From the IMG/VR virus record IMGVR_UViG_3300050162_000108, positions 1 through 26,469 of that record: 26,469 nt of DNA. One strand, given 5' to 3'. The stretch comes from a virus (lineage: Duplodnaviria > Caudoviricetes). A program made the translations under genes and the position numbers. The notes under the pieces are model-generated. The model did not search any database. It saw only the letters and a list, made by a program, of their open reading frames with translations, and was not told the origin of the DNA. Shown here piece by piece: positions 8,815 to 25,958 of this stretch. Each line of letters opens with the position of its first letter. Position 1 is the stretch's first letter.

Positions 8815-8827
8815 GTGGCTATCTTGC

Positions 8828-8856
8828 AGTGTATCCGGTACTAGCGGGGCTGTCAA
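8828..8856 (-). promoter_or_regulatory. Sigma70-like promoter
   Basis: TTGACA-N17-TACACT upstream of the scaffold/capsid operon. Confidence 0.6.
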
Positions 8857-9717: not shown

Positions 9718-9739
9718 AAATAAACCCGCTTCGGCGGGT
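9716..9739 (-). terminator. Rho-independent terminator
   Basis: ACCCGC-CGAA-GCGGGT-TTATTTTT. Confidence 0.8.
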
Positions 9740-9758
9740 AGACGTGTGCGAGGGCTGC

Positions 9759-9968
9759 TCAGTGTTGCAGCGCCACCTTAAGCACCGCACCAGCCAGGAA
9801 TATCACGATGCCAAAGACACAACCGCCAATCGCCAAGGTGACGCCCTCGTAGATGCCGAGACAAATAGCCCGGATCGGCCCTTTCTCGCCATTCTCATAA
9901 ATGCGCCAGAATGAGCAAGCCAGCACCATCAGTCCAATCAACCCGAATATCTGAGCCATTTGCATCAC
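9759..9968 (-). CDS. Small two-TM membrane protein
   Basis: 69 aa with two hydrophobic segments and SD TAAGGAG. Confidence 0.65.
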   Translation of the reverse strand: MMQMAQIFGLIGLMVLACSFWRIYENGEKGPIRAICLGIYEGVTLAIGGCVFGIVIFLAGAVLKVALQH

Positions 9969-9980
9969 TCGCTCCTTATG

Positions 9981-10754
9981 TCAAATAGGAAGTATACTAC
10001 GGCTAGAACATCTACAGTTTATGAGCTGTCCAGGTTGTAGATACTCACCACTGATCAGACACCCCGTGTCTATGTTGAACCGCTTGCCGTCAGCGGCTAC
10101 ATGGTCCGGGCGCGGCTCCTTGCCAGCATGCGAGTGCAGCCACTCTGCTTCCGTGATGCCTAGCTCCATGCGCCTGGCGCGGGTCGCCGCAGCGGTCAGC
10201 TTGTTGGACTGGTCGCGGGCAATGAGCGCGGCGCGGCGCTTCGTTACGCCGAACTCCTTTTGCAGGTCCGTGCTCATGGTCGAGAGGTCGCGCCCTTGCA
10301 CAAACGACCGCATCACGATGCCTTCCACGCGGCCCAGGTACTGCTGAGGGATAGACTTGATCAGTGCGACATTCTCACTGATCGACGCATTGAGAATGTC
10401 TCGGGTTACCGGTGTCATCTCGAATTGCACGGTCCATCCCGCATCTGCAAGCGCAGCCTTGAACGCCGAGTCGTGCGCCTTGAATGTACCATTAGCGAAC
10501 CCATCAGCAATCTTAGCGGACATATCATCGAATCGCTTGATCCATCGTTTCCCCAGGTTCTTGAGCATCTGCTGCATCAGTTTGGACGGCGACGCATCTT
10601 GCGCCATTTCCGGGCCGTCCTTGCGGTATTGCTCCCGCACTCCCTCCGCAACCGACGCGCCCATTTCCTTGATCAGCGCGTCAAGCTGTTTACGGTAACG
10701 CGCCTCAACCCCAGAGTTAGGCTTGACGGCGCGACAGGTTTTATACTTTCGCAT
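9981..10754 (-). CDS. Minor head / head morphogenesis protein (Mu gpF / SPP1 gp7 family)
   Basis: ENVALIKSIP, RAALIARDQ.NK, W.HS....EPR.DH, PGQLINCRC. Confidence 0.9.
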   Translation of the reverse strand: MRKYKTCRAVKPNSGVEARYRKQLDALIKEMGASVAEGVREQYRKDGPEMAQDASPSKLMQQMLKNLGKRWIKRFDDMSAKIADGFANGTFKAHDSAFKAALADAGWTVQFEMTPVTRDILNASISENVALIKSIPQQYLGRVEGIVMRSFVQGRDLSTMSTDLQKEFGVTKRRAALIARDQSNKLTAAATRARRMELGITEAEWLHSHAGKEPRPDHVAADGKRFNIDTGCLISGEYLQPGQLINCRCSSRSILPI

Positions 10755-12390
10755 TCACTTTGTCCGGAACAAGTTCCGATGCTTGGGGCGGGGTGGTCAA
10801 AAGTGTGGCTGCCGCTTCGGGCGTTAAGCCGAATGCTTGTTGCAAGATTGCCAACCCCGCCTCATGTGCGAGTGTTCCGACCGCGACGGCTTGTGATACT
10901 TCAATCATGGAACTAACTTGCGCGCCATTTAGAGTCGGTGCTGATGTCGCCAATTCGGCTTGCGATTCTGCCGGCCTATCCTCACCATCGTCCGGCTCCG
11001 GTTCTGCGTCAGGCATCACCACCACGCTGGTATCCAGCCCATCCCAGCCCGACGCTGGATCGCGGGCCAGCTTCTCGCGCACTTCTTCTTGATCCACTAC
11101 CGAGCGATCCAGATAGATCGCATCCGCCTGGGCATCGCTAAGCCGGATCGCGGATTCCTCCTGTGGCGTCATTTGCCACAGCGGTCGGAATTTGATGCAA
11201 ATGCTATCGTCAATCTCGCCCCACAAATGCAGCATAATGACCTTGATGCAAGTGGTCAGAGGTTCGAGATAGTACGCTTCCTGGATCGCGCTGATCCAAT
11301 CGTAGAACACCCTGATCTCGCCATCACTCGATGCGTTCAGCCCAGACGGGCTAATGCCGGTCAGGATGATAGCGGGGGTGCGGCTGATGCTGCACATATG
11401 TTCCTGCGCCTGGGCTTGCAGCTCATGCAAGCCACCAAGCGGCGTGTTGACCTGTATCAACTCCTCGCGGTCTTTGTCCAGTAGCATCAGCCCCTTGTTG
11501 CTACGGGTGGCCGTGAACAGATCGGCCCGAGCAAAAACGTCTTGCCCATCGTCGTTACCCTGTAGCACCTGGTCCATGCTGGTGGCGAGGACGCTAGTCG
11601 AGAAATTGTTGATCAGATCAGACACGGCTTGGCGGGTGCGCAGCCAGTTTTCAACGTACGGCTCGGCAATCTGGCTCAGCGACATGCCGGAGAAATTGTA
11701 CGCGGGCTTGAGCATGTCCGGCAGGGGGCGTGTGATGATCGTCAGCAGCCGGGACGCGTGGACCTCTTGACCGAGCATGAACCAATTAGTCGGTCGGTAG
11801 AAGTCCGGCGCGGCCGGGTCAAGGGCATTATACGCGCTCGGTGTTGTCCACATGGCCTCAACCGTGGTAAACGACTTGAGGGAGCCGACCGGGATAGTGG
11901 CCGGGGACAACACCAGCGGCACTTTGCGGTCCTGCCCGCTGAGGTTGATGAATATCTGCCCGCGCCCGAAGAAGCAATCGTGTGTTGCGGCTAACTGAAA
12001 CAGTCCCTTGAGTTTGAACCGCTCGATCGCTTTCGTCAGCTCGGCAATGCGCGGATTGGTTTTGTCGTCCGCTTCGTCGTCAGTGCTAGACAGCGCGATC
12101 CATTCCCGCGTTAGCTCAGTTGCCATCGTGCTGGCTAGCTGCCGATACTCTCCCCGAGTAGTCAGATTCGCGAGATGCGGATAGCCTGGGAACGGAGCGA
12201 AACCCGTGGTCATGCTGCCCAGGTAGTCGTACGCCAGCGGTGAGTAGTCCATCGCAACGCCCGAGACACGCCCCTCTGGCACCACCCCCAGCGGCAATTC
12301 TGGGGGTGCAAAACGAGGCGGGGGCAAGGGAGCGTCCATTGCCATGCGGTTAAGTGCGCGCCGCGCGCCGCCATTTCGCTTTTCTGCCAT
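10741..12390 (-). CDS. Portal protein (DUF1073-like)
   Basis: Follows terL. FPGYP.L, DFYRP..W, VHASRLL, YNFSGMSL.Q, LTGISPSGLNASSDGEIR.FYD. Start is probably ATG 12390. Confidence 0.9.
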   Translation of the reverse strand: MAEKRNGGARRALNRMAMDAPLPPPRFAPPELPLGVVPEGRVSGVAMDYSPLAYDYLGSMTTGFAPFPGYPHLANLTTRGEYRQLASTMATELTREWIALSSTDDEADDKTNPRIAELTKAIERFKLKGLFQLAATHDCFFGRGQIFINLSGQDRKVPLVLSPATIPVGSLKSFTTVEAMWTTPSAYNALDPAAPDFYRPTNWFMLGQEVHASRLLTIITRPLPDMLKPAYNFSGMSLSQIAEPYVENWLRTRQAVSDLINNFSTSVLATSMDQVLQGNDDGQDVFARADLFTATRSNKGLMLLDKDREELIQVNTPLGGLHELQAQAQEHMCSISRTPAIILTGISPSGLNASSDGEIRVFYDWISAIQEAYYLEPLTTCIKVIMLHLWGEIDDSICIKFRPLWQMTPQEESAIRLSDAQADAIYLDRSVVDQEEVREKLARDPASGWDGLDTSVVVMPDAEPEPDDGEDRPAESQAELATSAPTLNGAQVSSMIEVSQAVAVGTLAHEAGLAILQQAFGLTPEAAATLLTTPPQASELVPDKVNAKV

Positions 12391-12409
12391 ATGTCGCAAT
12401 CCTGGTAAT

Positions 12410-13861
12410 TTAGCGCCTAGTATACCCGCTTGCGCGTTCGAGCGCAGCTCTGGTGATTTTCAACTTGTTGTGCAATGGGAACAGATAGCGCGTCCCTTGC
12501 GTCAAGGCATCGACCTGATCATCGTGTGCCGCAGCAGGAAATGACAGCAATTCGCTCACCAGATCCTTGACCCAGGGCGCAATGTCCGGGTGCGGTAAAT
12601 ATAGGTTCCCAGCTTCCCAGAGATAGGTCATGGCGTGCGCCCTGGCCAGCTTCGACCCATCAGGTTCAATGGGGATCAGGCCGGGAACTTTGGGCTTAAG
12701 TGTGTCGATCACAGCGGGGCCATTCGCTTTGTCTTCGATCAGCGTCGCCCGGATCATCGGGAACTGTTCTCGCATCTCAACAACAGCGGTCACGGTTTTG
12801 GTGAAGCTCATGCGCTCGCGCTTTTGTCCCAGCAAATAGGCACTCGGCACCTTACGCCCCCAGACTTGTCCAACAACAAAGTCGGATCCATCAGTGTCCT
12901 TAAAAGTTGCGTCCCAACTGGCTACCACTTTGTCAAATTTCTCAGGCAGATCCTTCGGCAAATAGTAGCGCACGCCGTCCGCTTTGAACACGTTGCCGCC
13001 CGCTGCCCGAGGTGACTGCTGGTACATCGCGGCCCACCAGTATTCTGACATGCCGCGCTGGATCTCGAGCAGTTGTGCCAAGCTATGCAACTGCGGCACC
13101 AGCGGGCCGAGTGGCAAGTCTGGGTCGTAACCGGCTTCCCCTTCGGCATTGATCGCCGGGAACCGGAGGACTGTCAGGCGCGGGTCACCCGCCATATCGC
13201 TGATGATGCGACCGGCCAGATCGTCCTCGGCCCAGCTAGTCGCCATGACGATCTGGCCGGAGCATTCAGAGGCCCGGGTCTTGAAGACGGTTTGATACCA
13301 GTTCCAGTTTGTCTCTTTGCTGGTGGAGGATAACGCCTCTTTGGCATTTTTGACTGGGTCGTCAATGATGCCAATATCATACGGTCGGCCCGTCAGGCCC
13401 GCACCAATGCCGACGCCCAGGTAACTGCCCGTGCCGTTTGGGTTAGTGAACTCCCCCGCACGGCTCAGGGCGAACCGGTCACGTTTGGCGGGGGCTGGGA
13501 ACAGGCGAAGGTGCGCGTCACCGGCAATGGTGCGCCGTACGTCCTGGGCCATGCTGTTCGCTAGTTCGTCACTGTAGCTGGATCCAGCCAAGCGCATATT
13601 CGGGAATCGTCCGAACAGGTACGCAGGCAACTTACGAGATACGATCTCGGACTTGCCGTGCTGAGGTGGGGCTTGCAGGATCAGGACCGGCCGTTCACCC
13701 GCTTGCACTTGGGCAATGAACCGCTCTAGCGAGGCGCACACGCTGCGGCTGAACGCGCTGTGCTTGTATGCTGGATTGACGTAACTCAGGTATTCGCCAA
13801 GGTCAGTGCGCGCCATGCGCCTAGCCAGCAACTCGGCCGCAGCCTCCGCCTGGGTCGTCAT
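12410..13861 (-). CDS. terL: Terminase large subunit
   Basis: Walker A APPQHGKS, Walker B GIIDDP, nuclease residues SWDATFKD, IEDKANG, HDDQVDA. Confidence 0.95.
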   Translation of the reverse strand: MTTQAEAAAELLARRMARTDLGEYLSYVNPAYKHSAFSRSVCASLERFIAQVQAGERPVLILQAPPQHGKSEIVSRKLPAYLFGRFPNMRLAGSSYSDELANSMAQDVRRTIAGDAHLRLFPAPAKRDRFALSRAGEFTNPNGTGSYLGVGIGAGLTGRPYDIGIIDDPVKNAKEALSSTSKETNWNWYQTVFKTRASECSGQIVMATSWAEDDLAGRIISDMAGDPRLTVLRFPAINAEGEAGYDPDLPLGPLVPQLHSLAQLLEIQRGMSEYWWAAMYQQSPRAAGGNVFKADGVRYYLPKDLPEKFDKVVASWDATFKDTDGSDFVVGQVWGRKVPSAYLLGQKRERMSFTKTVTAVVEMREQFPMIRATLIEDKANGPAVIDTLKPKVPGLIPIEPDGSKLARAHAMTYLWEAGNLYLPHPDIAPWVKDLVSELLSFPAAAHDDQVDALTQGTRYLFPLHNKLKITRAALERASGYTRR

Positions 13862-14436
13862 GCTCCGCCTCGGGCAATACGTGCCAATTCGGCGTCGGAC
13901 ATCTCCGCAACAATGGTCACACCAGGCTGTTTCGGCGCGTCGTCATCGCTGATGTTGTAGGCCTTGCGCTCACCTGCATGGCGGATTGTCAGCATTTCTG
14001 CGGTGATCTTGGCGCATTTGAGTTGGTGGAAGCGTTGTGCTTCGGCTTTCTTGCCGTCTTCCGGCCCCACCACGCCATTTTCTGGCACCGGGACAGCCGG
14101 TTGCATCAACTCGATACCAAAAGCGTCTCTATGGGCCTCCCAGTCCATTTGCTGGCGTCGCATAATTTCCGCTTTGGCGTTGGCGGCTTCCAGGATCGAC
14201 TCGTACCGACGTTTTGAGGACGGTTCATTCACTATGTTTTGAACCCGTTCACGAGCAATTTTATTTGCTTGCTCGTTACCGTCCGAACCGTCGCTCCAGT
14301 TCTGCGCCTTCGACCGCTTGTGGATCAGCCCGACGCTCACGCCGTATTCCACGCTCAGCGCCTTGAAGCTGATGCGGTCAACTTCCCGCTTGATCCGAAT
14401 GTCCGCCCACTGATCCGGCGTCAATTTCTCAGCCAT
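13858..14436 (-). CDS. terS: Terminase small subunit
   Basis: Immediately upstream of terL with ATGA overlap. N-terminal HTH (W.DIR...E....SFKALSVEYGVS...IHKR...W) and C-terminus EMSDAELARIA. Confidence 0.8.
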   Translation of the reverse strand: MAEKLTPDQWADIRIKREVDRISFKALSVEYGVSVGLIHKRSKAQNWSDGSDGNEQANKIARERVQNIVNEPSSKRRYESILEAANAKAEIMRRQQMDWEAHRDAFGIELMQPAVPVPENGVVGPEDGKKAEAQRFHQLKCAKITAEMLTIRHAGERKAYNISDDDAPKQPGVTIVAEMSDAELARIARGGA

Positions 14437-14467
14437 GTCCCGTAATCCCACTTGTCGCAATAGTCAC

Positions 14468-14496
14468 AGTTTAGGGCATTCGATAAGGGCCTGCAA
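14468..14496 (-). promoter_or_regulatory. Candidate promoter for the packaging operon
   Basis: TTGCAG-N17-TAAACT about 30 nt upstream of terS. Confidence 0.45.
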
Positions 14497-14575
14497 CGAC
14501 CCCACAATACCCAACGCTACCCGGAACATTCTGGGCACTCTGAAATGCCCACCCCATAAGGCTTTCCTATTCTTT

Positions 14576-14747
14576 TACCCCTATACCCCAGCGAAATATA
14601 TAATGGTATGTATGGCACATCATGTATTACATTACGCATCATAATGTAATACCACATAAACGTATAAAAGAAGTGAAACGCCTATGGGGTAATGGAACTT
14701 TTTATAAGTACCTGATTTTAATGATGGTTTTCGTACCCTATACCCCA
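14576..14747. repeat. AT-rich origin-like element, copy B
   Basis: TACCCCTATACCCCAG (14576), CATAATGTAATA (14640), inverted TGGGGTA (14685), a further TACCCTATACCCCA (14734) and several ACCC boxes upstream. Lies in the divergent intergenic region. Confidence 0.75.
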
Positions 14748-14761
14748 CGACTAAACAGTGC

Positions 14762-14781
14762 TAAAATGTAATTACATTTTA
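14762..14781. promoter_or_regulatory. Perfect 20-bp palindrome (operator-like) overlapping an extended -10
   Basis: TAAAATGTAATTACATTTTA. It overlaps TGcTAAAAT and abuts the SD (AGGAG) of the 14796 gene. Confidence 0.7.
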
Positions 14782-14795
14782 TAGGAGCTACAACC

Positions 14796-15344
14796 GTGCC
14801 TACCATCCGCGACGAATTTTTCAAACAAGCGCTCGAACCGCTCCCAGCGACCGGGCGGTTACCGCTTGATATTGTAATGTCGGTGCAATTTGACACTAGG
14901 CGAGACGCCGCGAGGGCGGGAGAGGCTACTTATTTCACCGGGCAACCGTGCCGACATGGCCATTTATCTGACCGGTATACCTCAACCGGCAACTGTACCG
15001 AATGCCTCCGATCTGCCAGCGTAGCCAGCTACGCACGCGTAAAAACTGAGCTGTTGCGCCCTGACCTTCCGGTCATTCCAGAGTGCATTGCGGGAAAAGG
15101 GAAGGCTACCCTCAAACCGTGCATGACCTGCCCACGCATGAACGCGGGCTGTAAAGGCTCCCAGTATTCACAAGTTGGAAACAGGGCCGTTCAGGCTTTT
15201 CCGGACTACCCACCGCTCCCGAGAGGAGTGGCCCGCGCTCGTAGATACCAGGTATTCATGCCCAATCATGAGTGCCCTTCATGCGGCCTACGCACGTGGC
15301 GAACGGCGAGGAGTGACGAGTGTTGCGGGTGTGGTTCCAAGTAA
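14796..15344 (+). CDS. Cys-rich putative Zn-binding / DNA-binding protein
   Basis: GTG start with AGGAG. YFTGQPCRHGH...RY.STGNCTEC module, a degenerate second copy (ARARR..VF.P..ECPSCG...R..RSDECCGC) and a central C..CxxC..C. Confidence 0.75.
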   Translation: MPTIRDEFFKQALEPLPATGRLPLDIVMSVQFDTRRDAARAGEATYFTGQPCRHGHLSDRYTSTGNCTECLRSASVASYARVKTELLRPDLPVIPECIAGKGKATLKPCMTCPRMNAGCKGSQYSQVGNRAVQAFPDYPPLPRGVARARRYQVFMPNHECPSCGLRTWRTARSDECCGCGSK

Positions 15345-15346
15345 CG

Positions 15347-15377
15347 CAAAAGGCCCGGAGATCCGGGCCTTGTTTTA
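15347..15377. terminator. Bidirectional intrinsic terminator between convergent genes
   Basis: AAAAGGCCCGGA-GA-TCCGGGCCTTGTTTT. Confidence 0.85.
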
Positions 15378-15509
15378 TTCTGCGTCTTTTTGCATCTTAA
15401 CTTTTACCTCAATGGTGAGTTGGTTGAATTCCTCCTCACTCATTTCTGCTCCAGTATCAAAAAATTCTCCCCAGAGTTGGAAGTTTGCAGCGATTTGTTC
15501 GTAGGTCAT
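15375..15509 (-). CDS. acrIE4: Anti-CRISPR AcrIE4-like protein (44 aa)
   Basis: True start ATG 15509 (SD GGAG): MTYEQIAANFQLWGEFFDTGAEMSEEEFNQLTIEVKVKMQKDAE. It matches the AcrIE4 pattern as I recall it (TYEQIA..F.LWGE..D..AEM.EEEF..L..E.KV.MQ). 10 D/E versus 3 K. Confidence 0.8.
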   Translation of the reverse strand: MTYEQIAANFQLWGEFFDTGAEMSEEEFNQLTIEVKVKMQKDAE

Positions 15510-15540
15510 TTTGTATCTCCGGTTGCGTTTCGATGTGGTA

Positions 15541-15581
15541 ACTATAGCAAACACTATCCGACCCGTCAAATAATATTACAT
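15541..15581 (-). promoter_or_regulatory. Strong sigma70 promoter of the acrIE4-like gene
   Basis: ATGTAATATTAT-TTGACG-N17-TATAGT, a near duplicate of 16987-17027. Confidence 0.85.
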
Positions 15582-15767
15582 ATTTTCTTTTTCCCACTGA
15601 TCTCTACACTCCGCATCGCACCATCGGCGGGGTGATTCTACGGGCTCGCCACACGACAGACATAGTCCGGTGCCACGGGGCCCCTCTGGGCGACGGTAGG
15701 TCATTGCTGCGGCCAGCAACATGGCTTCGTGCTCACTAGCTGCGTCAATCGGGTCTGCGTGTCTCAT
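15576..15767 (-). CDS. DksA/TraR-like C4 zinc-finger protein
   Basis: ADPIDAASE N-terminus and CLSCGEP....RRWCDAECRD. Confidence 0.75.
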   Translation of the reverse strand: MRHADPIDAASEHEAMLLAAAMTYRRPEGPRGTGLCLSCGEPVESPRRWCDAECRDQWEKENM

Positions 15768-16285
15768 GATTCGTTACTCCAGATAGTTTTCCCCAACATC
15801 TTCTTGCGGGACAATCCAATCAGATTCCGCTTAGTGAAAGCGTAACTCAAACCGGTACGAACTGCACGAACCGGCGTATCCAAGCGTTCGGCTATCTCCG
15901 CCGCACTAGATGGGCCTTGCTCTAACAAATCGGCCATTATGCGAGTGATGAATGAATCGGGCGCGCTGGGCGCAACACCAGGCAACAGGTATTCAAACGT
16001 GCGTCCGATGCCGCGTGGCACTTCCCTGATCGTTACTAACCCCCGTTCCCTGGCGTGCCGCATCGCGCACTGAGCTTGACTCAGCGTGCAGCGGGCTTCT
16101 ATAGCGAGTTCTGATGCTGAGCCCCGCCCATGCAGTCGCTCCAGTGCCTGATAGACTTGTTCCCGCACACTGCCTGGCTCGAAAGTTGCAACAGGTGCCG
16201 CCGCGGTTATAAATAAGGATGCGAGTGCGGTGTTCACATTACCCTCCGGCACCGTTTCCCGCGCCAGCCGTTCACGAGTGGTCAT
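15764..16285 (-). CDS. Tandem winged-HTH DNA-binding protein
   Basis: Two wHTH-like units (ALERLHGRGSASELA...ARERGLV; LLEQGPSSAAEIAERL...VRTGL). Start probably ATG 16285, in ATGA overlap with the upstream small ORF. Confidence 0.7.
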   Translation of the reverse strand: MTTRERLARETVPEGNVNTALASLFITAAAPVATFEPGSVREQVYQALERLHGRGSASELAIEARCTLSQAQCAMRHARERGLVTIREVPRGIGRTFEYLLPGVAPSAPDSFITRIMADLLEQGPSSAAEIAERLDTPVRAVRTGLSYAFTKRNLIGLSRKKMLGKTIWSNES

Positions 16286-16410
16286 CTGTTTTTCATCCAT
16301 ATAGCGGTTGCAACAACAATCAGCAATATCAGGCCAAACCCCACGGCTAGCGGGTCATCGCGCCGTGGGGAGCACGATAGGTGGAACGCCACTACTGTGC
16401 ACGCACTCAT
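16282..16410 (-). CDS. Small single-TM protein, 42 aa
   Basis: Below the track cutoff. MSACTVVAFHLSCSPRRDDPLAVGFGLILLIVVATAIWMKNR*, with ATGA overlaps at both ends. Confidence 0.65.
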   Translation of the reverse strand: MSACTVVAFHLSCSPRRDDPLAVGFGLILLIVVATAIWMKNR

Positions 16411-16643
16411 TTTTCAATCTCCTGACGTTCGGTTACCGTAAGCTCCCGCCCGTTATCCGCGGGATCTTCCGACACATCGACCGCCATGTCGCTCGCAGTC
16501 ATGAGCGCGTCAGAGGCGGCTTTGTGCACCGACGGAGACGTGATCACCACTGCCCTAGTCGGGTCGTATGTAATGTGGAACCGCACGCCGAACAGATTGG
16601 CTGCGATCACTAGGACTACTGTTACTCCGATGTACCGTATCAT
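16407..16643 (-). CDS. Small protein with an N-terminal TM/signal segment
   Basis: 78 aa, hydrophobic N-terminus and acidic tail, coupled to the next ORF. Confidence 0.6.
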   Translation of the reverse strand: MIRYIGVTVVLVIAANLFGVRFHITYDPTRAVVITSPSVHKAASDALMTASDMAVDVSEDPADNGRELTVTERQEIEK

Positions 16644-16776
16644 TTAACACCCCCAAGCATATCTCTCGTTTCGTTTTGCACTGCGGCGGGTCGGTGTCGT
16701 CTCTATCCCACACCAGCCCGCACGCCGAGCAGTGCATTTGGTCATTCATCCGGCGCGCCTGGCATTTAGACGGCAT
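16555..16776 (-). CDS. Small Cys-containing hypothetical protein
   Basis: C.A...NDQMHCSACGLVWD.DD.DPP.C motif. The start overlaps the end of the upstream gene. Confidence 0.65.
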   Translation of the reverse strand: MPSKCQARRMNDQMHCSACGLVWDRDDTDPPQCKTKREICLGVLNDTVHRSNSSPSDRSQSVRRAVPHYIRPD

Positions 16777-16951
16777 TAATTGCCTCTGCGATCAGATCCA
16801 CACCATCAACAATCTGTAGGCCGTTGTAGTCATCCCACGTGATCAGATCGCGGTTGCGCATGCTATCGAAAATCTGTTCCGCATTATCACGCGAGCATTC
16901 CGACCCAAGCTGTTCGATGATCTGGTCAATGATGTTATTTCGAGTGTTCAT
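16766..16951 (-). CDS. acrIE5: Anti-CRISPR AcrIE5-like protein (61 aa)
   Basis: MNTRNNIIDQIIEQLGSECSRDNAEQIFDSMRNRDLITWDDYNGLQIVDGVDLIAEAINAV fits the AcrIE5 pattern as I recall it (RN.II.QII...G...RD.AE.I....R..D.I..DD...GL.I...VDL.A.A). SD GAGGAG. 12 D/E versus 4 R. Confidence 0.72.
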   Translation of the reverse strand: MNTRNNIIDQIIEQLGSECSRDNAEQIFDSMRNRDLITWDDYNGLQIVDGVDLIAEAINAV

Positions 16952-16986
16952 TTGCCCTACTCCTCAGTTGCGTTGTCTATGGTTCA

Positions 16987-17032
16987 ACTATAGCCGACTT
17001 TATCCGGGCGGTCAAATAATATTACATTTTAG
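16987..17032 (-). promoter_or_regulatory. Strong sigma70 promoter of the acrIE5-like gene
   Basis: CTAAAATGTAATATTAT-TTGACC-N17-TATAGT. Confidence 0.85.
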
Positions 17033-17036
17033 TGCG

Positions 17037-17063
17037 AAAAAGAGACGGTCCGAAGACCGCCCC
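17037..17063 (-). terminator. Rho-independent terminator after the primase gene
   Basis: GGGGCGGTC-TTCG-GACCGTCTC-TTTTT (cUUCGg loop). It insulates the acr promoter. Confidence 0.85.
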
Positions 17064-17118
17064 TGCACCCGCCCGCCCAAGGAGATATTAGTGCAATTGG
17101 ACAGTAGCACGCTAGGCA

Positions 17119-19428
17119 CTACGCGTCAAGCTCCATTTGTGCCGCGGTATAGATCCGCGCTATTTCAACCGGTGCGGCTGCCAGCGCGGCGACTGAGCCT
17201 GAGCGAACATACAGACGGGGCTTAACCGAGTCCGGCAGTACAACATTGTTAGTACGCCCCCCTGGTAGTGACGGGTGCGGCACATAGCCCAGGCTTGCCA
17301 TTAGGTCCTTACGTTTAGTCAGTGCAATCTCGTGACGGCGGTCTTTAAGCAACACGTCCAGGAAATGCGACGATACAAAATCGCCTTTGAAGCCCACGCG
17401 GCCCTCGTCGATCGCCTCAGCAACCGCCTGCTCTACCGGCCCCAGGCTGCGACTAATGGCCTCGGCGGTAGACGTGGTTACCGGTGCGCGGACGCATACG
17501 GTGGCTGGATTTAGCTCGTTCGGGATGGCGTAGGTGCGCAGATAATGGGTGACCGCACCGAAGCCACCTTGATGCTTGAGCCAGTCATATAGGGCCGGGA
17601 AATAATCGCCGCCCATTCCGTCGCGTTCAATGTGCTCCGGGCACTGCTGCGCGGTATAGAACGGCGCGATACGGCGGTCGTCGGCGGTCTTTGGTACGCC
17701 ATCCTTCGGATTGCAATTGAACAGAAAATTGCAGCACACCGCGCGACTCTCGGCATCCACACCCTTACGCTCAATTGGCGCAACTTCCCCGGTGATCACG
17801 GGTTTCAGTTCTTCCAGCAAATCCCGCCGAACCATAATGTCTTCGATATAGACAAATATCTTGCCATCCATCCAACTGTTGAACTCTTTCTCCAGTTGTT
17901 TCTTAGTTGGACTGCTGGTGTACTTGTGGCCCACCGCCTCACGCAGCACCATGCTGAACAGGGTCTTGCCGTTGCCGGGCGCGCCCTGCATCAGCGGTGC
18001 CCATGAGAATTTGCGGCCCGGGTACTGCACGACGGCGGCCATCCATGCGAGGAATTTGGCGCGATCGTCGCCCTCCGGCAGCAGCTTGGCAAGATGCGTT
18101 AGAAATGGCGCCACATCGCCCGGTGTCGCGTCTACTTGCGCGGGAAGGTAGGTGTTGACGTATGCATCGCCCTGGATATTAACCAGTGCGCCGTGCGGCA
18201 AATCTGGTCTAAAGCACGTGCCTTTAGCATGGGGGGGCCTGCTGGTGGCGCATTGGGTAAAGGCTTTCCATGCGTCGCCCTCGAATTTCTCGCCCATGTC
18301 ATCCAGTGCGTACTTGATCCCGCCGAAGAGCACGCGGAACGCATCGGGGCTAAGCAGCTCGGTATGGTGTGGTACAAATACGCGATTTACCGTTTGCACA
18401 TAAACGCAGCCGCCGAATATGACCGGGTATTCCGCCAGCCGGACAAACGTAGCGGCCTCCCGGGCAACAGGCACAGGCATAACGTGGTCGGCAATCATGG
18501 GGGCGGTCTGCATCACTTCGGCCACGGGGGCGGCTTTATCTCGACATACGTCCCGGCAGTCAGCAACAGCGGACAGGATAGTGCGTTCCAGATAGTCCTC
18601 TCTGTCCCACTTCTCACGCACCAGTGACGATTGCTTCATGATCGACAGCATCCGTTCGCAGTTGCAGCCCGTCCAGAACGCCAGGTGCTGAGCTAATGCC
18701 CGGTCGGCTTCGGACTGGCCCCACGGTGCGTCTGTCGTCGTTGGATAAGACGCCGCGAGCACGTCTGCATTCGCGCACCATAGATCATCAAACGCCGCTT
18801 TGCCACCGAAGATCGCACCGGCGCTCCGACTCTCACGCGCACGGCGGATCAGTTCAGCGTCATCCACGCTTCCGCGCCAGTCTGCACGCGGGGAGTCGGT
18901 CCATTCCGCAGTACCCCCAGCCACGCTGGGGCTCGGCGGGAACCAATCGGGCACGACGGCAGCCAGGTGTGCGGTAAAATCTTGCCACGCATTACCCGTG
19001 GCACTCGCTGGGTCACCCAAGCAGATGAAGCGCTCTTTGTGATACAGCTCAATGCCGTGGGCGGTATTCTTGCACTTGTGGGCCGGCGGCATACCGCAGC
19101 CCCAAATATGTAAGCCGTTGCGCGATTGCGACACTTCAACGGCGGCACCGGGGAACGCGGCAACAAGCGGATGTTCTAGCGTACCGTCAATGTCTAGACA
19201 CCAGAACGGATCAGCCTCAGTCAGCACAAAGCCGACCGGTAGCCCGGTAGCGGCGGCGGTGTCATAGTCGGACCACGATGCCGGGTCGGTACTGCTGGCC
19301 GCCCCTAGCGTGTTTGGGTTGATCGGGATCTTATTGGTTTTACCGGGGCGGGCCGCATCGGGCACCAGTCGCACGGCTACAAATTGATGGAATTGGGCTA
19401 ATTGGGCGAGCGGGGCGGGCAAGGGCAT
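17119..19428 (-). CDS. Primase-polymerase/helicase (AEP prim-pol, helical bundle and SF3 DUF5906-like helicase; NrS-1-like)
   Basis: ASSTDPASW, LDID, EVSQSRNGLHIW, IELY...RF; SEADRALAQHLAFWTG..ERM; Walker A GAPGNGKT, YIED, DRR. Confidence 0.9.
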   Translation of the reverse strand: MPLPAPLAQLAQFHQFVAVRLVPDAARPGKTNKIPINPNTLGAASSTDPASWSDYDTAAATGLPVGFVLTEADPFWCLDIDGTLEHPLVAAFPGAAVEVSQSRNGLHIWGCGMPPAHKCKNTAHGIELYHKERFICLGDPASATGNAWQDFTAHLAAVVPDWFPPSPSVAGGTAEWTDSPRADWRGSVDDAELIRRARESRSAGAIFGGKAAFDDLWCANADVLAASYPTTTDAPWGQSEADRALAQHLAFWTGCNCERMLSIMKQSSLVREKWDREDYLERTILSAVADCRDVCRDKAAPVAEVMQTAPMIADHVMPVPVAREAATFVRLAEYPVIFGGCVYVQTVNRVFVPHHTELLSPDAFRVLFGGIKYALDDMGEKFEGDAWKAFTQCATSRPPHAKGTCFRPDLPHGALVNIQGDAYVNTYLPAQVDATPGDVAPFLTHLAKLLPEGDDRAKFLAWMAAVVQYPGRKFSWAPLMQGAPGNGKTLFSMVLREAVGHKYTSSPTKKQLEKEFNSWMDGKIFVYIEDIMVRRDLLEELKPVITGEVAPIERKGVDAESRAVCCNFLFNCNPKDGVPKTADDRRIAPFYTAQQCPEHIERDGMGGDYFPALYDWLKHQGGFGAVTHYLRTYAIPNELNPATVCVRAPVTTSTAEAISRSLGPVEQAVAEAIDEGRVGFKGDFVSSHFLDVLLKDRRHEIALTKRKDLMASLGYVPHPSLPGGRTNNVVLPDSVKPRLYVRSGSVAALAAAPVEIARIYTAAQMELDA

Positions 19429-19436
19429 AGCACATC

Positions 19437-20003
19437 CTAAATCAAGTATTCAGCGGCGGCGCGCCGCAGTGACTCGGGGGCGGACTTGGCAACGTGATTA
19501 CCAATCTGCAATCCCCGGGCGATCATCTTAGCATCTTCCTGGCTGATCGCCCACGTCATGAGTTTGTCGGGCATATTGCGTAGACCGTCAAAAGCGTTAC
19601 TCACGCTGGCCGGGCACACGCCGGACGCCTCTGCAATTTCAGCACGGGAAACACCGACAAACCCCCGGTCTACAATGAGCCGGGCTGCCGCACCATACAC
19701 GCGGTTCAACTCGTAGCTATTGCACAGCTCAGGGTGACGGTCCCGCGCAATCTTAGCCTCGGCTGGGGTCAAGGTGCAGCCAAACTGCACCATGCGCGCA
19801 ACCATTGGCCAGTCCTCTGCAGTGCGAGCGGCCCGGTACGCTACCTCGCGGTAGGCACGCAGCCCCTTGGCACCTTCCACCTTGACCATACGCGTGATGT
19901 GCGTGGTGCTCACGCCCAGGCGACGCGCCAGGCTTTTACGATCCACGGCGGGTATGCCCCGCTCCACCGCCAGATCACGGAAAGCAGTTGCAAGATTCGA
20001 CAT
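19437..20003 (-). CDS. Tandem TetR-like HTH regulator
   Basis: Two TetR-type N-terminal units (LAVERG...VDRKSLARRLGVS; LIVDRGF.GVSRAEIAEASGV..ASV..AF). Confidence 0.7.
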   Translation of the reverse strand: MSNLATAFRDLAVERGIPAVDRKSLARRLGVSTTHITRMVKVEGAKGLRAYREVAYRAARTAEDWPMVARMVQFGCTLTPAEAKIARDRHPELCNSYELNRVYGAAARLIVDRGFVGVSRAEIAEASGVCPASVSNAFDGLRNMPDKLMTWAISQEDAKMIARGLQIGNHVAKSAPESLRRAAAEYLI

Positions 20004-20031
20004 ATTGGTACTCCATTGAATTGACTCCCAT

Positions 20032-20060
20032 AGGGTAACGCATTGTTACGGGTTGGTCAA
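20032..20060 (-). promoter_or_regulatory. Sigma70-like promoter with inverted repeat
   Basis: TTGACC-N17-TACCCT, with GTAAC-N5-GTTAC (20035-20049) overlapping the spacer and -10. Confidence 0.6.
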
Positions 20061-20061
20061 A

Positions 20062-20538
20062 TTACAGCGACCCCGTCCCAGTGACCATAGCGGCGTCACC
20101 ACCGCGAGCATTGACCATTGCACACCAGCGCATTTGTGCCTCCTCGCGCCCCTTGCCGGTATAGCGCCACCCGGCCCGCTTGACCTCGCGGGACACAAAT
20201 TGCCCCAGGACCATGCCGACATGCTCGGGCAAGATAGTCACGGGTCTGATCCCGATCCAGTCGCCCGACTTGTAGGCTTTATTCATTTGGGGCGAGTCGT
20301 TAGCAAGGCCGTAACGGATCAAGCGGCCTTCGACATCAGTGAGCGCCCCGACATTATTGCGGAATAGCAACACACCTTTGCTTGATGCTTCTTGGCGTAC
20401 TTGGCTGGTTACCCCCGCCTCACTTAACTTCTCGTCTGTTGGCGCACCCAGCATTACCGGCGCAAGTCGGTGCATCAGGTCTTGCAATGCGGCTGGTGGA
20501 ATGCCCCAGGCTTGCGCCCAATCGTGTAGGGGGTTCAT
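20062..20538 (-). CDS. VRR-NUC family nuclease
   Basis: True start probably ATG 20538 (ATGA overlap). SEAGV, LFRNNVG, SGDWIG, SREVKR, Q.RW...V.ARGG.A. Confidence 0.85.
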   Translation of the reverse strand: MNPLHDWAQAWGIPPAALQDLMHRLAPVMLGAPTDEKLSEAGVTSQVRQEASSKGVLLFRNNVGALTDVEGRLIRYGLANDSPQMNKAYKSGDWIGIRPVTILPEHVGMVLGQFVSREVKRAGWRYTGKGREEAQMRWCAMVNARGGDAAMVTGTGSL

Positions 20539-20900
20539 TTGCACAACTCCCGGTAACGTTGCTCGGCTTCTAGGGCCAACCGACGAAGCAGCGTAGGGTT
20601 CCCCCCTGCCCGCTCGTACGCTGCTAATTGATTTTGCCATTCGCGGAACGCGACTAATTGCCGCCAAAACCGAACCGGGGACCACGTAAAGCGCGGTCCA
20701 ACCGGAGGGTAGGCAAACAACAAACCGTCTGGACCGCACGGGCCTGATTCTGATCGAGACTCTCGGCAACTGATAACTCCGGCCATCCCCTGAACCGGGC
20801 CGGATACCAGGTCAATGCGCTCAGTCTGCCGAGCCGCCCCAAAGCACAACTGATGGTTTTTCGGCCCAACACAGTGCTTACAATCTTTGCAGTAGTTCAT
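20535..20900 (-). CDS. Hypothetical Cys-rich protein
   Basis: SD AAGGAGG. CKDCKHC...C...C...CGPDG.LF. Confidence 0.75.
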   Translation of the reverse strand: MNYCKDCKHCVGPKNHQLCFGAARQTERIDLVSGPVQGMAGVISCRESRSESGPCGPDGLLFAYPPVGPRFTWSPVRFWRQLVAFREWQNQLAAYERAGGNPTLLRRLALEAEQRYRELCK

Positions 20901-20924
20901 GTCGTAGTACCTCCTTGAGTCCTC

Positions 20925-20953
20925 AATGTAACCTAATTTAGCGGGCAGGTCAA
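20925..20953 (-). promoter_or_regulatory. Sigma70-like promoter
   Basis: TTGACC-N17-TACATT. Confidence 0.65.
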
Positions 20954-23701
20954 GACCCCATTTGCATCTAATACCGATTGTACCTTAGCGCTCAGTGCGT
21001 CGGCCTCGGGTCGCCCCAGCGTGCGGGCGGTTGCCACATCAACACCGAAGCCAAAATAGAACCGCTTGTAGGCTTCCCGGTCGTCTCGGCCCTGGGCATT
21101 CTGCCAGCCCGCCCATAGTGCGATCATGTCGCCCAGGACCTCCTGGGCCTCTTTGCGGTCGTTATGGCGATTAGCAATAGCACGCGCTACGATATGATCA
21201 GCACCATGCGGGATGAGCGGCGCGGCCATGATGCGGTCGGCCTCCCCGCGTAGCCGCGCCAACGTTGCCGGGTCGAGTTCAAACAAATCCCCGTCCACTT
21301 CCTCGGGGCGACCGCGCCCGGCAGGCACTGGGACATAGCCACACGCCGGGCAACATGGCTCTGTGCGCGGGTAGACAAACAGGCAACCCGCTTCTATCTC
21401 GGGGTTCAGGCAAGTCCGCAAGGGCTCGGCATCGTTGGCGGCGTTGCGGGTACCGCGCTTGCGAGCATCAAGCGACCATTGCCGGGGCGCATCAGGTAAC
21501 CCGTGACGGTCTACGCAATTCCCAACATGGTCGATGATGTACGCCACTGGCTTTTCGCTAGCGGCAATGTGCGCCAGCCGTTCGGCCCGACTCATCTCGC
21601 CCCAGCGGCCCATTAGCTCCGGTGCGATCATGAGTCGGAGTGCGCGACCAAACTGTTGCACAAAAAGACCGAAAGACATGGTAGGTCGCGCAAAGCTCAC
21701 GACCTCGCAGGCCGGAACGTCCACGCCTTCGCCCAGGATGTCCACATTGACCAGTTGCAGTAGCTTGCCTGTCTCGAATTGGCGCATGGTCGTGGCGCGA
21801 TATTCGGTCGTCGATTCGCTAGAAAGTACCGCCGCCGCCACACCGTGTGCGTTGTACGCCGTTGCGATCTCCCGGGCATGATCCAGGTCCACGGCAAACG
21901 TGATACCGCGCTTGCCGGGCGCAATCCGGAGGTATGAGCCGACCACATCACCCACAATGCTAGACTTGTGCATTGCCTCGGATAGCGGCTTAGGCGAGAA
22001 GTCCCCGCCTGCGCTGGTAGCGACTTTGGACAGATCGAGATTACCAGTCGGCGGAGCAAAGATTCGGTAGTCGGTCAACATACCATCGTTGATCATGTCG
22101 CGCATACTCGGCCCAACAATCAATTCGTCAAATAGTCCATGCGAGTCAACACCCAGCCCTTTACCGTCTGCGCGCACGGGTGTTGCTGTTGCTCCCAGGA
22201 TGCGGCAATTGTCCGGCAACATCACAATGGCGCGACCCCATTTGTTGTCTGCCAAGAGATGATGACAATTGTGAACTACGACGCCGTTTGCAACATAGGT
22301 GTGGAATTCATCGACTTCAATATTGTAGACAAAACCATCATTGGTTGATCCAAGATCGTCCGATTCTTGAAACGAAACACTGTCCAGCCTATGCCAGTGA
22401 GAAATTGATCTTTCTTGGTATCTTGGGCTTGGCGGATTTTTGCACCGTGGCTCGGGCCGTCCGCTTCCACTGCGATTTTCAGTAGTACGTTTCCGCAGTC
22501 TATTTTGTAATGCGTCGGATAAAAGGAATTGTAGCCAGTCGGCACAATGGTCTGCAGACAAAATCCGTGCTGCCCCAATATTTCCAGCAACTTCAATTCT
22601 GCTTTCGTTGGTGGTTTCCCGTTGCCTCCCCTTTGTTTCGGCCGATGATGTACCGCTTGCAACGATTCCGACACTTTCCGTCGCACATCCTCCCGATGCA
22701 TCGGATTGCGCTCGGTCATGCGCTCTGATGCGTACTTGTGATTTGTTCGGGCCATCGTTTCCGAACTGATCCGGGATTTGTGTTTGGATGAGCAGTCTAG
22801 CGTGCAGTACGTCGGGTACCCTTTCTTCCAATTCGTCGCCCGATGTCCGGTCGCTTGAAATTGTCGGCCGCATTCTTTGCATGTCGCCAGGATTGATTGC
22901 TTCGGGGGCCACGTTCTCCGTGCATCTCGGTGGGCATACCCGCATTTCGGCGTGCAATACACCCTGCCCGTCTTCTTGAGCCGATAGCGCTGTGTCTCGG
23001 TCGAGTTCAGTATTTCTTTCCCGCATTGCGTGCAGTTCATGCAGCAGCACCTCATCGTCGGTTGTCAGTTTGGCGGCCTCCACCCATCCGCGTCGGGTGT
23101 AAAAAGGGTGCCCACTTGTGCAGTTTAGCACATGGTGCGCCACACACACACGAACCATTTGGGCGGGAATCGGATTCTTGAACAGGCGACGCACCTCACG
23201 CAAATGAAACGTGCCTTCCTCCTCATCGAATGCAGTAACCATGTCACCCACACGTAATGACTCGATCGCTTTCCCGTCGATTAATGTCCCTGCTGGAAAA
23301 CACTCATCGACAACGGCCATCCCCACGCTACGCAAGAACGCATCTGACTTATCGCGCCTGATTAAGGTATCCACCCCAGCCGCCGCGACAGATGCGTTCT
23401 GATCAACCCACCGTCGCCCCAGGTGCCGCATGTGCAGCGCCTCGATGCTGCGACGGGTAGCATCAGGGGCAATGATTCGATGCCGCACGCCATAGCGCCC
23501 CAACGTGAGCGACATTTGGCCGACTAGCTCCTGACGATGAGCCATGACAATGCTCGGACGGGGATAGTCGCTCACGATGTTGGCAAAGGTCGCCGTCTTG
23601 CCCGAGCCGGTTGGCAGCACAATGCACGGTGCTTTACGGCCAGCGGCCCAAGCTGCATGGACCCGCTCGCGTATCTCTTGCTGGTATGGGCGTAGCTTCA
23701 C
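20933..23701 (-). CDS. SF2 DExH-box helicase (YejH/RadD-like) precursor containing an intein
   Basis: Q motif LRPYQ, Walker A LPTGSGKT, HRQEL, DE|CHH split by the intein, ATATP.R.DG, EGVDVP, QQFGRALR, C-terminal Cys cluster. Predicted spliced length 577 aa. Confidence 0.93.
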   Translation of the reverse strand: MKLRPYQQEIRERVHAAWAAGRKAPCIVLPTGSGKTATFANIVSDYPRPSIVMAHRQELVGQMSLTLGRYGVRHRIIAPDATRRSIEALHMRHLGRRWVDQNASVAAAGVDTLIRRDKSDAFLRSVGMAVVDECFPAGTLIDGKAIESLRVGDMVTAFDEEEGTFHLREVRRLFKNPIPAQMVRVCVAHHVLNCTSGHPFYTRRGWVEAAKLTTDDEVLLHELHAMRERNTELDRDTALSAQEDGQGVLHAEMRVCPPRCTENVAPEAINPGDMQRMRPTISSDRTSGDELEERVPDVLHARLLIQTQIPDQFGNDGPNKSQVRIRAHDRAQSDASGGCATESVGIVASGTSSAETKGRQRETTNESRIEVAGNIGAARILSADHCADWLQFLLSDALQNRLRKRTTENRSGSGRPEPRCKNPPSPRYQERSISHWHRLDSVSFQESDDLGSTNDGFVYNIEVDEFHTYVANGVVVHNCHHLLADNKWGRAIVMLPDNCRILGATATPVRADGKGLGVDSHGLFDELIVGPSMRDMINDGMLTDYRIFAPPTGNLDLSKVATSAGGDFSPKPLSEAMHKSSIVGDVVGSYLRIAPGKRGITFAVDLDHAREIATAYNAHGVAAAVLSSESTTEYRATTMRQFETGKLLQLVNVDILGEGVDVPACEVVSFARPTMSFGLFVQQFGRALRLMIAPELMGRWGEMSRAERLAHIAASEKPVAYIIDHVGNCVDRHGLPDAPRQWSLDARKRGTRNAANDAEPLRTCLNPEIEAGCLFVYPRTEPCCPACGYVPVPAGRGRPEEVDGDLFELDPATLARLRGEADRIMAAPLIPHGADHIVARAIANRHNDRKEAQEVLGDMIALWAGWQNAQGRDDREAYKRFYFGFGVDVATARTLGRPEADALSAKVQSVLDANGVLTCPLN
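22268..23302 (-). mobile_element. Intein (345 aa, residues 134-478 of the helicase precursor)
   Basis: Block A CFPAGTLI, block B CTSGHPF, block F VYNIEVDEFHTYVANG, block G VVVHN followed by +1 Cys. Excision restores VVDECHH. Confidence 0.95.
22276..23040 (-). CDS. Nested out-of-frame putative homing endonuclease (Zn ribbons, NUMOD3-like helix, DUF559/Vsr-like nuclease), 254 aa
   Basis: +1 frame relative to the intein, with GAGGTG 7 nt before ATG 23040. CTQCG..YCTPKC and CKECG..YCTLDC, NPM....VRRKVSESL, PTKAE, YKID, IAVEADGPSH, D.KKD.FL...GWTVFRF.N. Confidence 0.85.
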   Translation of the reverse strand: MNCTQCGKEILNSTETQRYRLKKTGRVYCTPKCGYAHRDARRTWPPKQSILATCKECGRQFQATGHRATNWKKGYPTYCTLDCSSKHKSRISSETMARTNHKYASERMTERNPMHREDVRRKVSESLQAVHHRPKQRGGNGKPPTKAELKLLEILGQHGFCLQTIVPTGYNSFYPTHYKIDCGNVLLKIAVEADGPSHGAKIRQAQDTKKDQFLTGIGWTVFRFKNRTILDQPMMVLSTILKSMNSTPMLQTAS

Positions 23702-24033: not shown

Positions 24034-24076
24034 TTGACATGCCAGTTACTATACGTTACATTGGAATCTCAATCAA
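24034..24076. promoter_or_regulatory. Overlapping divergent promoters
   Basis: Rightward TTGACA(24034)-N17-TACATT(24057). Leftward TTGATT(24076)-N17-TATAGT(24053). Confidence 0.65.
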
Positions 24077-24835: not shown

Positions 24836-25933
24836 ATGCCCGGCGCACACGCTCGTTTTACTCCGTCGTCTCTGGGCATTCTAATGGCGTGTGCCGGTTC
24901 TCACGAACTGGGCCGCCATTATCCTGACGATGAGGATAGCCCGGCCGCCCGAGAAGGTACAGCAGCCCATGAAGTTGCGGCGGCGCTAGTGGCTACTGGG
25001 GAATTGATGCCGATCGGCACTCTTGCGGCTAACGGTGTAGAAATTACACAGGAAATGGCAGAGGGGGGACACCTATACGCGGAGCATGTTCGCTCCGTAT
25101 TGCCGAGGGGGGCCATATGTGTTGAACAGCGGGTCGAGTGTTTCAATCTACACCCGGAATGTTGGGGGACGCCTGACACGTACCTATTCGACGGTGCCGA
25201 CTTGCACGTGTTCGATTACAAGTTCGGCCACGGTTTTGTTGATGAATTCGAAAATTGGCAATTACTGGCCTATGCCACAGGTATCTGGAACGGTGCGGCG
25301 ATCCGTGACAAGTTGCATTTGCATATCGTTCAGCCGCGCAATTTCTCCCGGCGCGGGCCGGTGCGTACCTGGACACTGACGGCTCAACAGTTAGATGGCT
25401 ATGCCAGCCGGATTTCGGCGCGGCTACGAGACGTGGCGGAGGGGGGTGCCGAGATTGGGTGCGTGACGGGCCAACACTGCCACTACTGCCCGGCCCGGCG
25501 CGGTTGCGAGGCTCTAACACGGGCCGGGCAATTGGCGTGCGTCACTACCGGCGAGGCGATCCCCCTGGACCTGACGCCGGAACAGTTGGGCGTCGAGTTG
25601 GCCTATCTGCAACGGGCTGCCGAATTGCTCAAATACCGAATCGGGGGGCTGGAGGAGCAAGCCGAGGCGCTGCTTCGCGTAGGCGCACGCGTACCGGGCT
25701 ATCATTTGGTTAGTGCGCCAGGTCGAGAACGTTGGACTGCACCAGACCAAGTTGCAGCACTCGGCCAATTGTGGGGAGTGGATCTTATGAAACCTGCAGA
25801 GCCGATCACGCCTGCGCAGGCCCGCAAGAAGCTGCCCGACCCGGCAATGGTGGATACGCTGGCCACTCGCACCGCTGCGCTGGTTTTGCAGCAAGATAGT
25901 GAAAAAGAAACACGCCGTATATTCTGGGCTTGA
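24836..25933 (+). CDS. Cas4-like PD-(D/E)xK exonuclease (DUF2800-like)
   Basis: HA.F.PSS....C, EGTAAH, GTPD, DYKFG, NWQL..YA, C..C.....C Fe-S-type cluster. Confidence 0.88.
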   Translation: MPGAHARFTPSSLGILMACAGSHELGRHYPDDEDSPAAREGTAAHEVAAALVATGELMPIGTLAANGVEITQEMAEGGHLYAEHVRSVLPRGAICVEQRVECFNLHPECWGTPDTYLFDGADLHVFDYKFGHGFVDEFENWQLLAYATGIWNGAAIRDKLHLHIVQPRNFSRRGPVRTWTLTAQQLDGYASRISARLRDVAEGGAEIGCVTGQHCHYCPARRGCEALTRAGQLACVTTGEAIPLDLTPEQLGVELAYLQRAAELLKYRIGGLEEQAEALLRVGARVPGYHLVSAPGRERWTAPDQVAALGQLWGVDLMKPAEPITPAQARKKLPDPAMVDTLATRTAALVLQQDSEKETRRIFWA

Positions 25934-25958
25934 CGGCCTAGATAATATCGGTTACATT
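25930..25958 (+). promoter_or_regulatory. Sigma70-like promoter
   Basis: TTGACG-N17-TACATT upstream of the SSB gene. Confidence 0.65.

Follow-up and report, generated by a model that had tools for sequence, protein, structure and literature searches.

Two sigma70-like promoter cassettes as probable sockets for exchanged first genes, here AcrIE5 and AcrIE4 homologues, in a Jedunavirus-related phage contig

The closest described systems are the PeSL cassettes of T4-type phages, which are repeated sigma70-like promoter units before ORFans (Arbiol 2010, PMC2839356; Comeau 2014, PMC4122927), and the cassette principle itself is in print since 2010. Operator motifs of anti-CRISPR-associated (Aca) regulators have already been proposed as a handle for finding anti-defence genes (PMC13551039). 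Here we describe a partial phage contig of 26,469 nt, IMG/VR record IMGVR_UViG_3300050162_000108 (Duplodnaviria; Caudoviricetes), which in its whole analysed length is called the window. Its minus strand contains two similar promoter cassettes, each followed by a homologue of a type I-E anti-CRISPR (Acr) protein. Fixed early-promoter sockets with exchanged first genes, here AcrIE5 and AcrIE4 homologues, are the probable explanation for this arrangement, judged from sequence comparison.

The two cassettes and their first genes

The top-listed direct repeat of the window in a repeat finder is 45 nt long, 82% identical and located at 15540-15584 and 16986-17030, 1446 nt apart. The 43-nt core of cassette 2 matches cassette 1 in 35 of 43 positions, and every other position on both strands in at most 24. 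Both cassettes are sigma70-like (10 of 12 consensus matches), with a TTGAC-C/G -35 box, a 17-nt spacer and a TATAGT -10 box, and are the joint best of 15 promoter-like sites in 8000-26469, a region with 9.6 ± 3.5 such sites in shuffles. Cassette 1 (16949..17030, minus strand) consists of an AT-rich element, the -35 box TTGACC (17015), a spacer with the motif GNTA-N6-GNTA, the -10 box (16992-16987), an A/C-rich leader, a ribosome-binding site (RBS) and the ATG. Cassette 2 (15507..15584, minus strand) has the same anatomy, with the -35 box TTGACG at 15569 and the -10 box at 15546-15541, and lacks an upstream hairpin. The predicted terminator hairpin between the primase gene and cassette 1 (17037..17064, minus strand; 10-bp stem, TTCG loop, T run) is kept in the sister contig L005, and the folding energy of the 45 nt upstream is -21.8 kcal/mol at cassette 1 and -7.2 at cassette 2. 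The stop codon of a DksA/TraR-like gene falls within the AT-rich element of cassette 2. The only palindrome at the cassettes is an 8-nt AT palindrome upstream of the -35 box, and the spacer has no inverted repeat. Identical contiguous bases between the copies number only about 16; the upstream 13 nt, TATAGT and the leader are private to the two cassettes. The strings quoted for both cassettes in the first-pass annotation are present on the minus strand; its statement that the whole promoter, leader and RBS are shared is somewhat overstated for the leader, where ACGCAAC, GGAG and AAATG are common but the alignment needs gaps.

That two type I-E Acr homologues are the first genes behind the cassettes, as proposed in that annotation, is borne out by sequence matches (AcrIE4 in Pfam, PDB and phage records, AcrIE5 in PDB). 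The predicted AcrIE4 homologue behind cassette 2 (15375..15509, minus strand) has 44 aa and an isoelectric point (pI) of 4.15. It matches Pfam PF25703 (AcrIE4; E 1.3e-15, 57.6 bits, cut-off 27) and PDB 7vzm_A (AcrIE4-F7; E 9.7e-11, 23 of 42 identities, counted by hand). Phage records match in 29 cases at 57-62%, 28 of them Pseudomonas phages, including D3112 orf31 (61.9%), which is called hypothetical in its record and which we take to be the original AcrIE4. In AcrIE4-F7, the substitutions E19K and D22K abolish Cas8e binding, and Y20A and D30K/E31K weaken it 18-fold and 24-fold, respectively (PMC8887544). Aligned with 7VZM, the 44-aa protein keeps E19 and D22 as E15 and D18, while Y20 is replaced by F16 and D30/E31 by E26/E27; this residue correspondence includes a one-residue numbering offset deduced from four residue pairs.

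The putative AcrIE5 homologue behind cassette 1 (16766..16951, minus strand; 61 aa, pI 4.05), missing from L005, matches PDB 9UPS chain A (9ups_A; E 6.5e-6) with 27 identities, counted by hand, across query positions 2-57 of 61. It has three predicted helices, and its single-sequence model reaches a mean confidence (pLDDT) of 67.6. GC content is lower in both acr homologue genes (0.40 for AcrIE4, 0.47 for AcrIE5) than in the primase gene (0.60).

First genes in the sister contig and in related phages

By primase homology and gene order, the window phage is, as far as sequence allows, a Jedunavirus/Peatvirus-related myovirus too distant for genus membership. Its primase shares 44-48% identity with the primases of Klebsiella phage JD001 (Jedunavirus), Pectobacterium phage PEAT2 and Shewanella phage SppYZU01, and the gene order helicase-nuclease-TetR-primase-variable region-terminase-portal is common to the window and relatives of this type. 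Structural genes, portal, terminase, primase, helicase, exonuclease and single-stranded DNA-binding protein (SSB) genes were recognised with Pfam and PHROGs. PEAT2, near Jedunavirus, was judged lytic from genome analysis (PMC8472413). Every one of the 15 runs that contain at least 0.29 of the words of the region is a leaf-litter metagenome from 2025; eight are possible sources, and all may belong to one campaign. Contig L001 is 99.98% identical to the window and not independent of it.

L005 has a primase 96% identical to that of the window, and the main shared blocks show 91-95% nucleotide identity. Both cassette cores are retained (42/43 in cassette 1, 40/43 in cassette 2) and the block between them is unbroken (1125/1185 nt identical). 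Because L005 keeps both promoters yet differs in the first gene at both, the promoters are, on this comparison, apparently fixed sockets in which the first gene is exchanged. In slot 1 of L005, acrIE5 is missing and the promoter leads into the gene of a 73-aa Zn-ribbon-like protein, in the window at 16555..16776 (minus strand; phrog_8641, E 6.5e-7). The two contigs part immediately downstream of the -10 box, with more differences in the leaders than in the flanks. Since a Zn-ribbon-like gene (weak match, E 3e-5) directly follows the post-primase promoter in the distant relative L019 as well, a gain of acrIE5 in the window lineage is suggested.

Slot 2 of L005 contains an unrelated 77-aa gene. 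The first 25 nt of acrIE4 are shared, and window sequence resumes at a predicted bidirectional terminator (15350..15371, no strand assigned; -18.0 kcal/mol), which ends slot 2, is common to L005 and forms the right-hand join of the swap. The left join sits within the acrIE4 reading frame, outside the cassette. Of the 25 nt shared by the window and L005 genes, 19 also agree with D3112 orf31, and the alignment of the 77-aa family starts only at residue 6-11 in 12 of 13 matches; from this scar and this late start we infer that acrIE4 was the first occupant and was then replaced in frame at codon 8-9. The L005 joints are 11231/11278 and 12561/12815 (run X1). In the same run, possibly the source sample, the window type has a depth of 220 and short contigs identical to L005-private DNA a depth of 2-6; as both are found there, the two types can meet. 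A joint of cassette 1 with cassette 2 is absent from the contigs, which drop rare variants, of the four further runs compared with the window. Between primase and cassette 1, L005 furthermore has additional inserted DNA (~10530-11100) that includes a promoter-like site and is missing from the window.

The 77-aa protein is acidic (pI 4.23). Its family comprises 13 representatives at E 0.001 and 17 matches with a profile, including two hypothetical proteins of Vibrio cholerae, and about 25 proteins overall. The model has an overall pLDDT of 81, with 62 in the first ten residues vs 74-88 elsewhere. The protein has no match in Pfam, PDB sequences, Atlas features or phage records, one relative has none in plasmids, and the viral contigs searched with it returned only itself; the sole match in genome_contigs (L221) was rejected, as it lies against an unrelated gene. 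Foldseek gave none at E 0.001 and VIA-align a best Z of 2.7, which does not establish the fold as new. In a two-member cluster (P0003/P0016), a domain of the 77-aa type follows a helix-turn-helix (HTH) domain matching PDB 7XI5 (E 1.3e-12), which is Aca10 (PMC9410881); this is one context among the approximately 25 family proteins. From slot, charge, size and the Aca10-like link, the 77-aa protein may be called a fair Acr candidate, no more.

For the wider family, the comparison covered the top 80 of 254 primase loci, a set of partial sequences without dereplication. Of these 80, 50 have a promoter after the primase, and the 44 readable first genes fall into 20 clusters, 7 of them inside one 24-locus group. 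Eight of 85 loci have promoter pairs agreeing in at least 35 of 43 positions (maximum 42/43): the window, the sister, PEAT2, which is counted twice, and four others. Pairs with at least 32 are present in 29 loci and with at least 30 in 40. By a heuristic rule, 4 of the 31 first-gene clusters with 2-12 loci are found in at least two sockets. Two sockets, each with upstream DNA of its own, contain a DUF7170 gene that is identical at DNA level over the aligned stretch; a 60-aa gene, found twice in L020, moved likewise, and in both cases the join lies inside the cassette. As both genes recur in sockets with such joins, cassette-mediated relocation is likely in the relatives; the window/L005 pair would represent exchange at fixed sites. 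The plug-in cassette with swapping by recombination, envisaged in the first-pass annotation, is thereby retained in part: the slots are supported by L005, which keeps the promoters and changes both first genes, and joins inside the cassette exist in relatives, but exchange between the window's own two copies was not seen in the four runs or in the intact L005 block.

The leader of the four cassettes of L032 is close to the window and L005 leaders. In L082 (19480-21597), L089 (13200-17100) and L032, four to six near-identical cassettes (up to 41-42 of 43) form arrays ahead of small, unrelated genes; these loci are better cases than the window for PeSL-type shuffling. A gene of the Acb2/Tad1 family is first after a family promoter in L072 (3326-3550, minus strand; Pfam E 8e-18). 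Stp-like peptides (anticodon nuclease activator) of 35-37 aa, just below the Pfam cut-off, occur in the post-primase socket of two Jedunavirus-like loci (L022:12514-12627, plus strand; L188:176-283, minus strand).

Spacer motif, rival explanations and value as a marker

TTGAC occurs 71 times in the window, with GNTA-N6-GNTA at fixed places in six, which are exactly the six sites passing the strict promoter rule. The pattern was derived from these same sites and its final TA belongs to the -10 box; for the four free motif bases in five further sites, the chance from composition is near 1e-12. It forms a direct repeat with a 10-bp period, common to core promoters. Besides the two cassettes, promoters of this class precede a conserved 246-aa gene with the exonuclease gene (24034..24062, plus strand), the Gp2.5-like SSB gene (25930..25958, plus strand; spacer 12/17 identical to cassette 1), a 121-aa open reading frame (ORF) upstream of the nuclease, TetR-like and primase genes (20925..20953, minus strand), and the DUF2213 (head-protease) head gene (8828..8856, minus strand). 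A candidate regulator is a TetR-like protein of two related halves (19437..20003, minus strand; TetR_N E 1.1e-7; halves 31% identical, E 1e-5), whose own promoter at 20060 has 5 of 6 motif bases. GNTA-N6-GNTA is absent from 372 of 372 promoter-like sites in the relatives; in 223 of these, TTGAC is followed six bases later by GTC (TTGAC-N6-GTC), which makes an inverted repeat across the -35 box. Every lineage thus appears to use a promoter signature of its own, which is likely an operator. The L060-L096 group has a second promoter class with palindromic spacer (28 sites, for example L071 8134 and 10352) before small accessory genes, and its core genes have the TTGAC-N6-GTC class.

Under fixed sockets with exchanged first genes, each repeat would be an early promoter read by host sigma70, complete with leader and ribosome site, and would keep its position, and the first gene behind it would be gained, lost or replaced. 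The AcrIE5 and AcrIE4 homologues would likely inhibit type I-E CRISPR-Cas shortly after injection, the early timing itself being a prediction. The most likely agent of shut-off would be the TetR-like regulator encoded by the phage itself, with the GNTA-N6-GNTA spacer motif as its target; this is the weakest step and is offered tentatively.

Several points weigh against this explanation. The slot comparison relies on a single sister contig, perhaps from the same sampling campaign as the window. The 44-aa AcrIE4 homologue ends about five residues before the family model does. The AcrIE5 identity comes from one PDB chain, with no match in Pfam, PHROGs, NCBIfam, phage records or the word-index search, and pentatricopeptide (PPR) repeats reach 2.8e-5 in the same PDB search. 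Neither homologue is present in any of 83 family loci, so that the acr homologues of the window are atypical cargo. Finally, SppYZU01 combines a 166-aa TetR-like protein that looks two-domain by eye with promoters of the inverted-repeat type; domain doubling therefore does not predict a direct-repeat motif, and the doubled TetR protein as predictor of a direct-repeat operator was weakened.

A different origin would be recombination of the two copies with each other or with further copies, as in PeSL cassettes, with cassette-gene units excised as circles and reinserted, so that the duplication itself is the engine of swapping. Cassette 1 shows the full PeSL anatomy, the slot-1 difference starts directly behind the -10 box with leaders more different than the flanks, the DUF7170 gene sits in two sockets of relatives, and closely matching promoter pairs recur in 8 of 85 loci. 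Yet L005 retains the whole 1.2-kb block between the copies, no cassette joint occurs in the four runs, the contiguous identity between the copies is short, and the left join of slot 2 lies within a reading frame; we consider this origin unlikely for the window. The likeness could also be that of two promoters of one regulon with ordinary turnover of accessory genes, the acr homologues being passengers, possibly inactive in the host. Every one of the six strict promoters has the spacer motif, the cassette 1 spacer is as near to the SSB promoter as to cassette 2 (11/17), and a promoter-plus-leader pattern fitting both cassettes matches 118 times in viral contigs, many of them unrelated phages. 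However, the upstream 13 nt agree in 12 of 13 positions between the cassettes and in 0-4 of 13 with the five other promoters, known Acr families stand first behind both cassettes, and the essential AcrIE4 residues are retained; mere regulon membership is considered the least probable of the three. Fixed sockets with exchanged first genes are preferred. A far-reaching extension is rather doubtful, namely that the 77-aa protein founds a new anti-CRISPR or anti-defence family with unmatched fold, and that Jedunavirus-related virulent phages capture such genes in TetR-like-controlled promoter sockets replacing Aca; if true, slot position rather than motif would be the usable discovery rule in this family.

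Use of the cassette as an Acr marker, as suggested in the first-pass annotation, finds no support: the spacer motif precedes core genes of the same genome, and family promoters are seldom followed by a known anti-defence family. The counter-case named in that annotation, placement before ordinary core genes, is seen in part: it concerns the spacer motif (SSB, DUF2213 head gene and others), not the cassette-specific upstream 13 nt and leader. The strict cassette pattern occurs in three viral contigs, two of the window clade and one unrelated AT-rich phage, and the cassette core pattern in the two clade contigs only. A looser pattern in metagenomes was rejected, with 9 of 9 loci unrelated to the window (blastn, tblastn). 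Among 124 first-gene cluster representatives, Pfam recovered three anti-defence families, i.e. the AcrIE4 of the window, one Acb2/Tad1 and one Stp-like below cut-off; NCBIfam, applied to 89 of the 124, found no Acr, and the two largest clusters (41 and 38 loci) are core genes. The 62 distinct first genes behind the promoter-plus-leader pattern include the window's own AcrIE4 (1), ArdA (1), Stp-like below cut-off (1), HTH (4) and DUF7170 (2), and 53 have no match; undiscovered Acrs are possible among these, because the libraries missed the AcrIE5 homologue too, although the counts do not point to an enrichment. The ArdA antirestriction gene (L214:2-268, minus strand) lies in another phage after this generic pattern. 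As its core precedes ordinary genes too, the promoter signal alone is a poor Acr marker, and the motif alone is unfit for this purpose.

Neighbouring features and comparison with known systems

Between the acr homologues lie, in addition to the Zn-ribbon-like ORF, two small ORFs without family match that are kept in L005 (16282..16643, minus strand; 78 and 42 aa), a 178-aa HTH protein (15764..16300, minus strand; TrmB/HTH_20 under cut-off) found among 83 loci only in L005, and the DksA/TraR-like Zn-finger ORF (15576..15767, minus strand; phrog_54, E 5.1e-11). None of these five ORFs matches an anti-defence family in Pfam, PHROGs or NCBIfam. The term 'anti-defence island' fits the flanking acr homologues, but with five ORFs in between that lack such a match and are kept in the sister it is generous. 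The 178-aa HTH ORF matches no Aca family (Pfam, PHROGs, NCBIfam) and no Aca structure at E 0.1, and there is no HTH ORF behind cassette 2; at sequence level, no classical Aca is recognised in the window.

The helicase ORF (20933-23701, minus strand) is split by a Hint/intein domain, with a DUF559-type endonuclease ORF inside in another frame (22276-23055, minus strand). L005 aligns as two pieces at the helicase, and the Hint/intein insertion is seemingly missing there. An AT-rich stretch before the small terminase gene (14520-14800), partly replaced in L005, contains two palindromes based on AATGTAA, of which the window has 9 copies vs 1.5 expected; it is a possible origin or regulator site. 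A 41-nt repeat is present at 4567-4607. A 182-aa Cys-rich ORF (14796-15344, plus strand) has homologues in 44 of 83 loci, and L005 contains two tandem diverged copies of it (12844-13886, minus strand; 32-39%). Rfam gave no match at E 0.5 in 14300-17300.

Literature searches for Acrs in Jedunavirus or for these cassettes, in a library with few subscription papers, found no report, and published supplementary lists of Acr homologues may include these proteins. The locus places putative homologues of two type I-E anti-CRISPRs in a phage group described as lytic, without recognisable Aca, and the sister comparison captures a gene replacement with a readable scar and yields a concrete candidate, the 77-aa protein. 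Like known AcrIE4, the window homologue is acidic, retains Cas8e-binding residues and reaches 62% identity to D3112 orf31; it differs by its 44 aa, shorter at both ends, and by having a promoter to itself, as a single gene, in a Jedunavirus-related phage. Known AcrIE4 belongs to the acr-aca1 operon of Mu-like Pseudomonas phages; the D3112 acr promoter shows no convincing likeness to the window promoters. The AcrIE5 homologue resembles AcrIE5 of PDB 9UPS in 27 of 56 residues, similar length, acidity and its three predicted helices. With acr-aca operons the window shares a strong promoter before acr genes and a regulatory motif common to several operons; unlike these, it has no Aca homologue found, a spacer without inverted repeat and a motif that is genome-wide including core genes.

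The nearest parallel in architecture is PeSL. Both systems have a sigma70-like repeat, an AT-rich upstream region with the stop codon of the upstream gene inside, a Shine-Dalgarno sequence and a start codon; in both, the cassette stands before ORFans, and single genes are present or absent between close relatives. Strain-specific ORFans directly after the cassette are found between the window and L005 and in the post-primase socket of the family. PeSL cassettes belong to T4-type phages in approximately 50 copies, whereas the window has two in a non-T4 family with genomes of about 45-50 kb and a stem-loop at cassette 1 only, with no sign of mini-circles in the contigs of the four runs. PeSL genes are lost by deletion between two copies, whereas in the window the cassette appears to stay while the gene after it is replaced; the window cargo includes a known Acr family.

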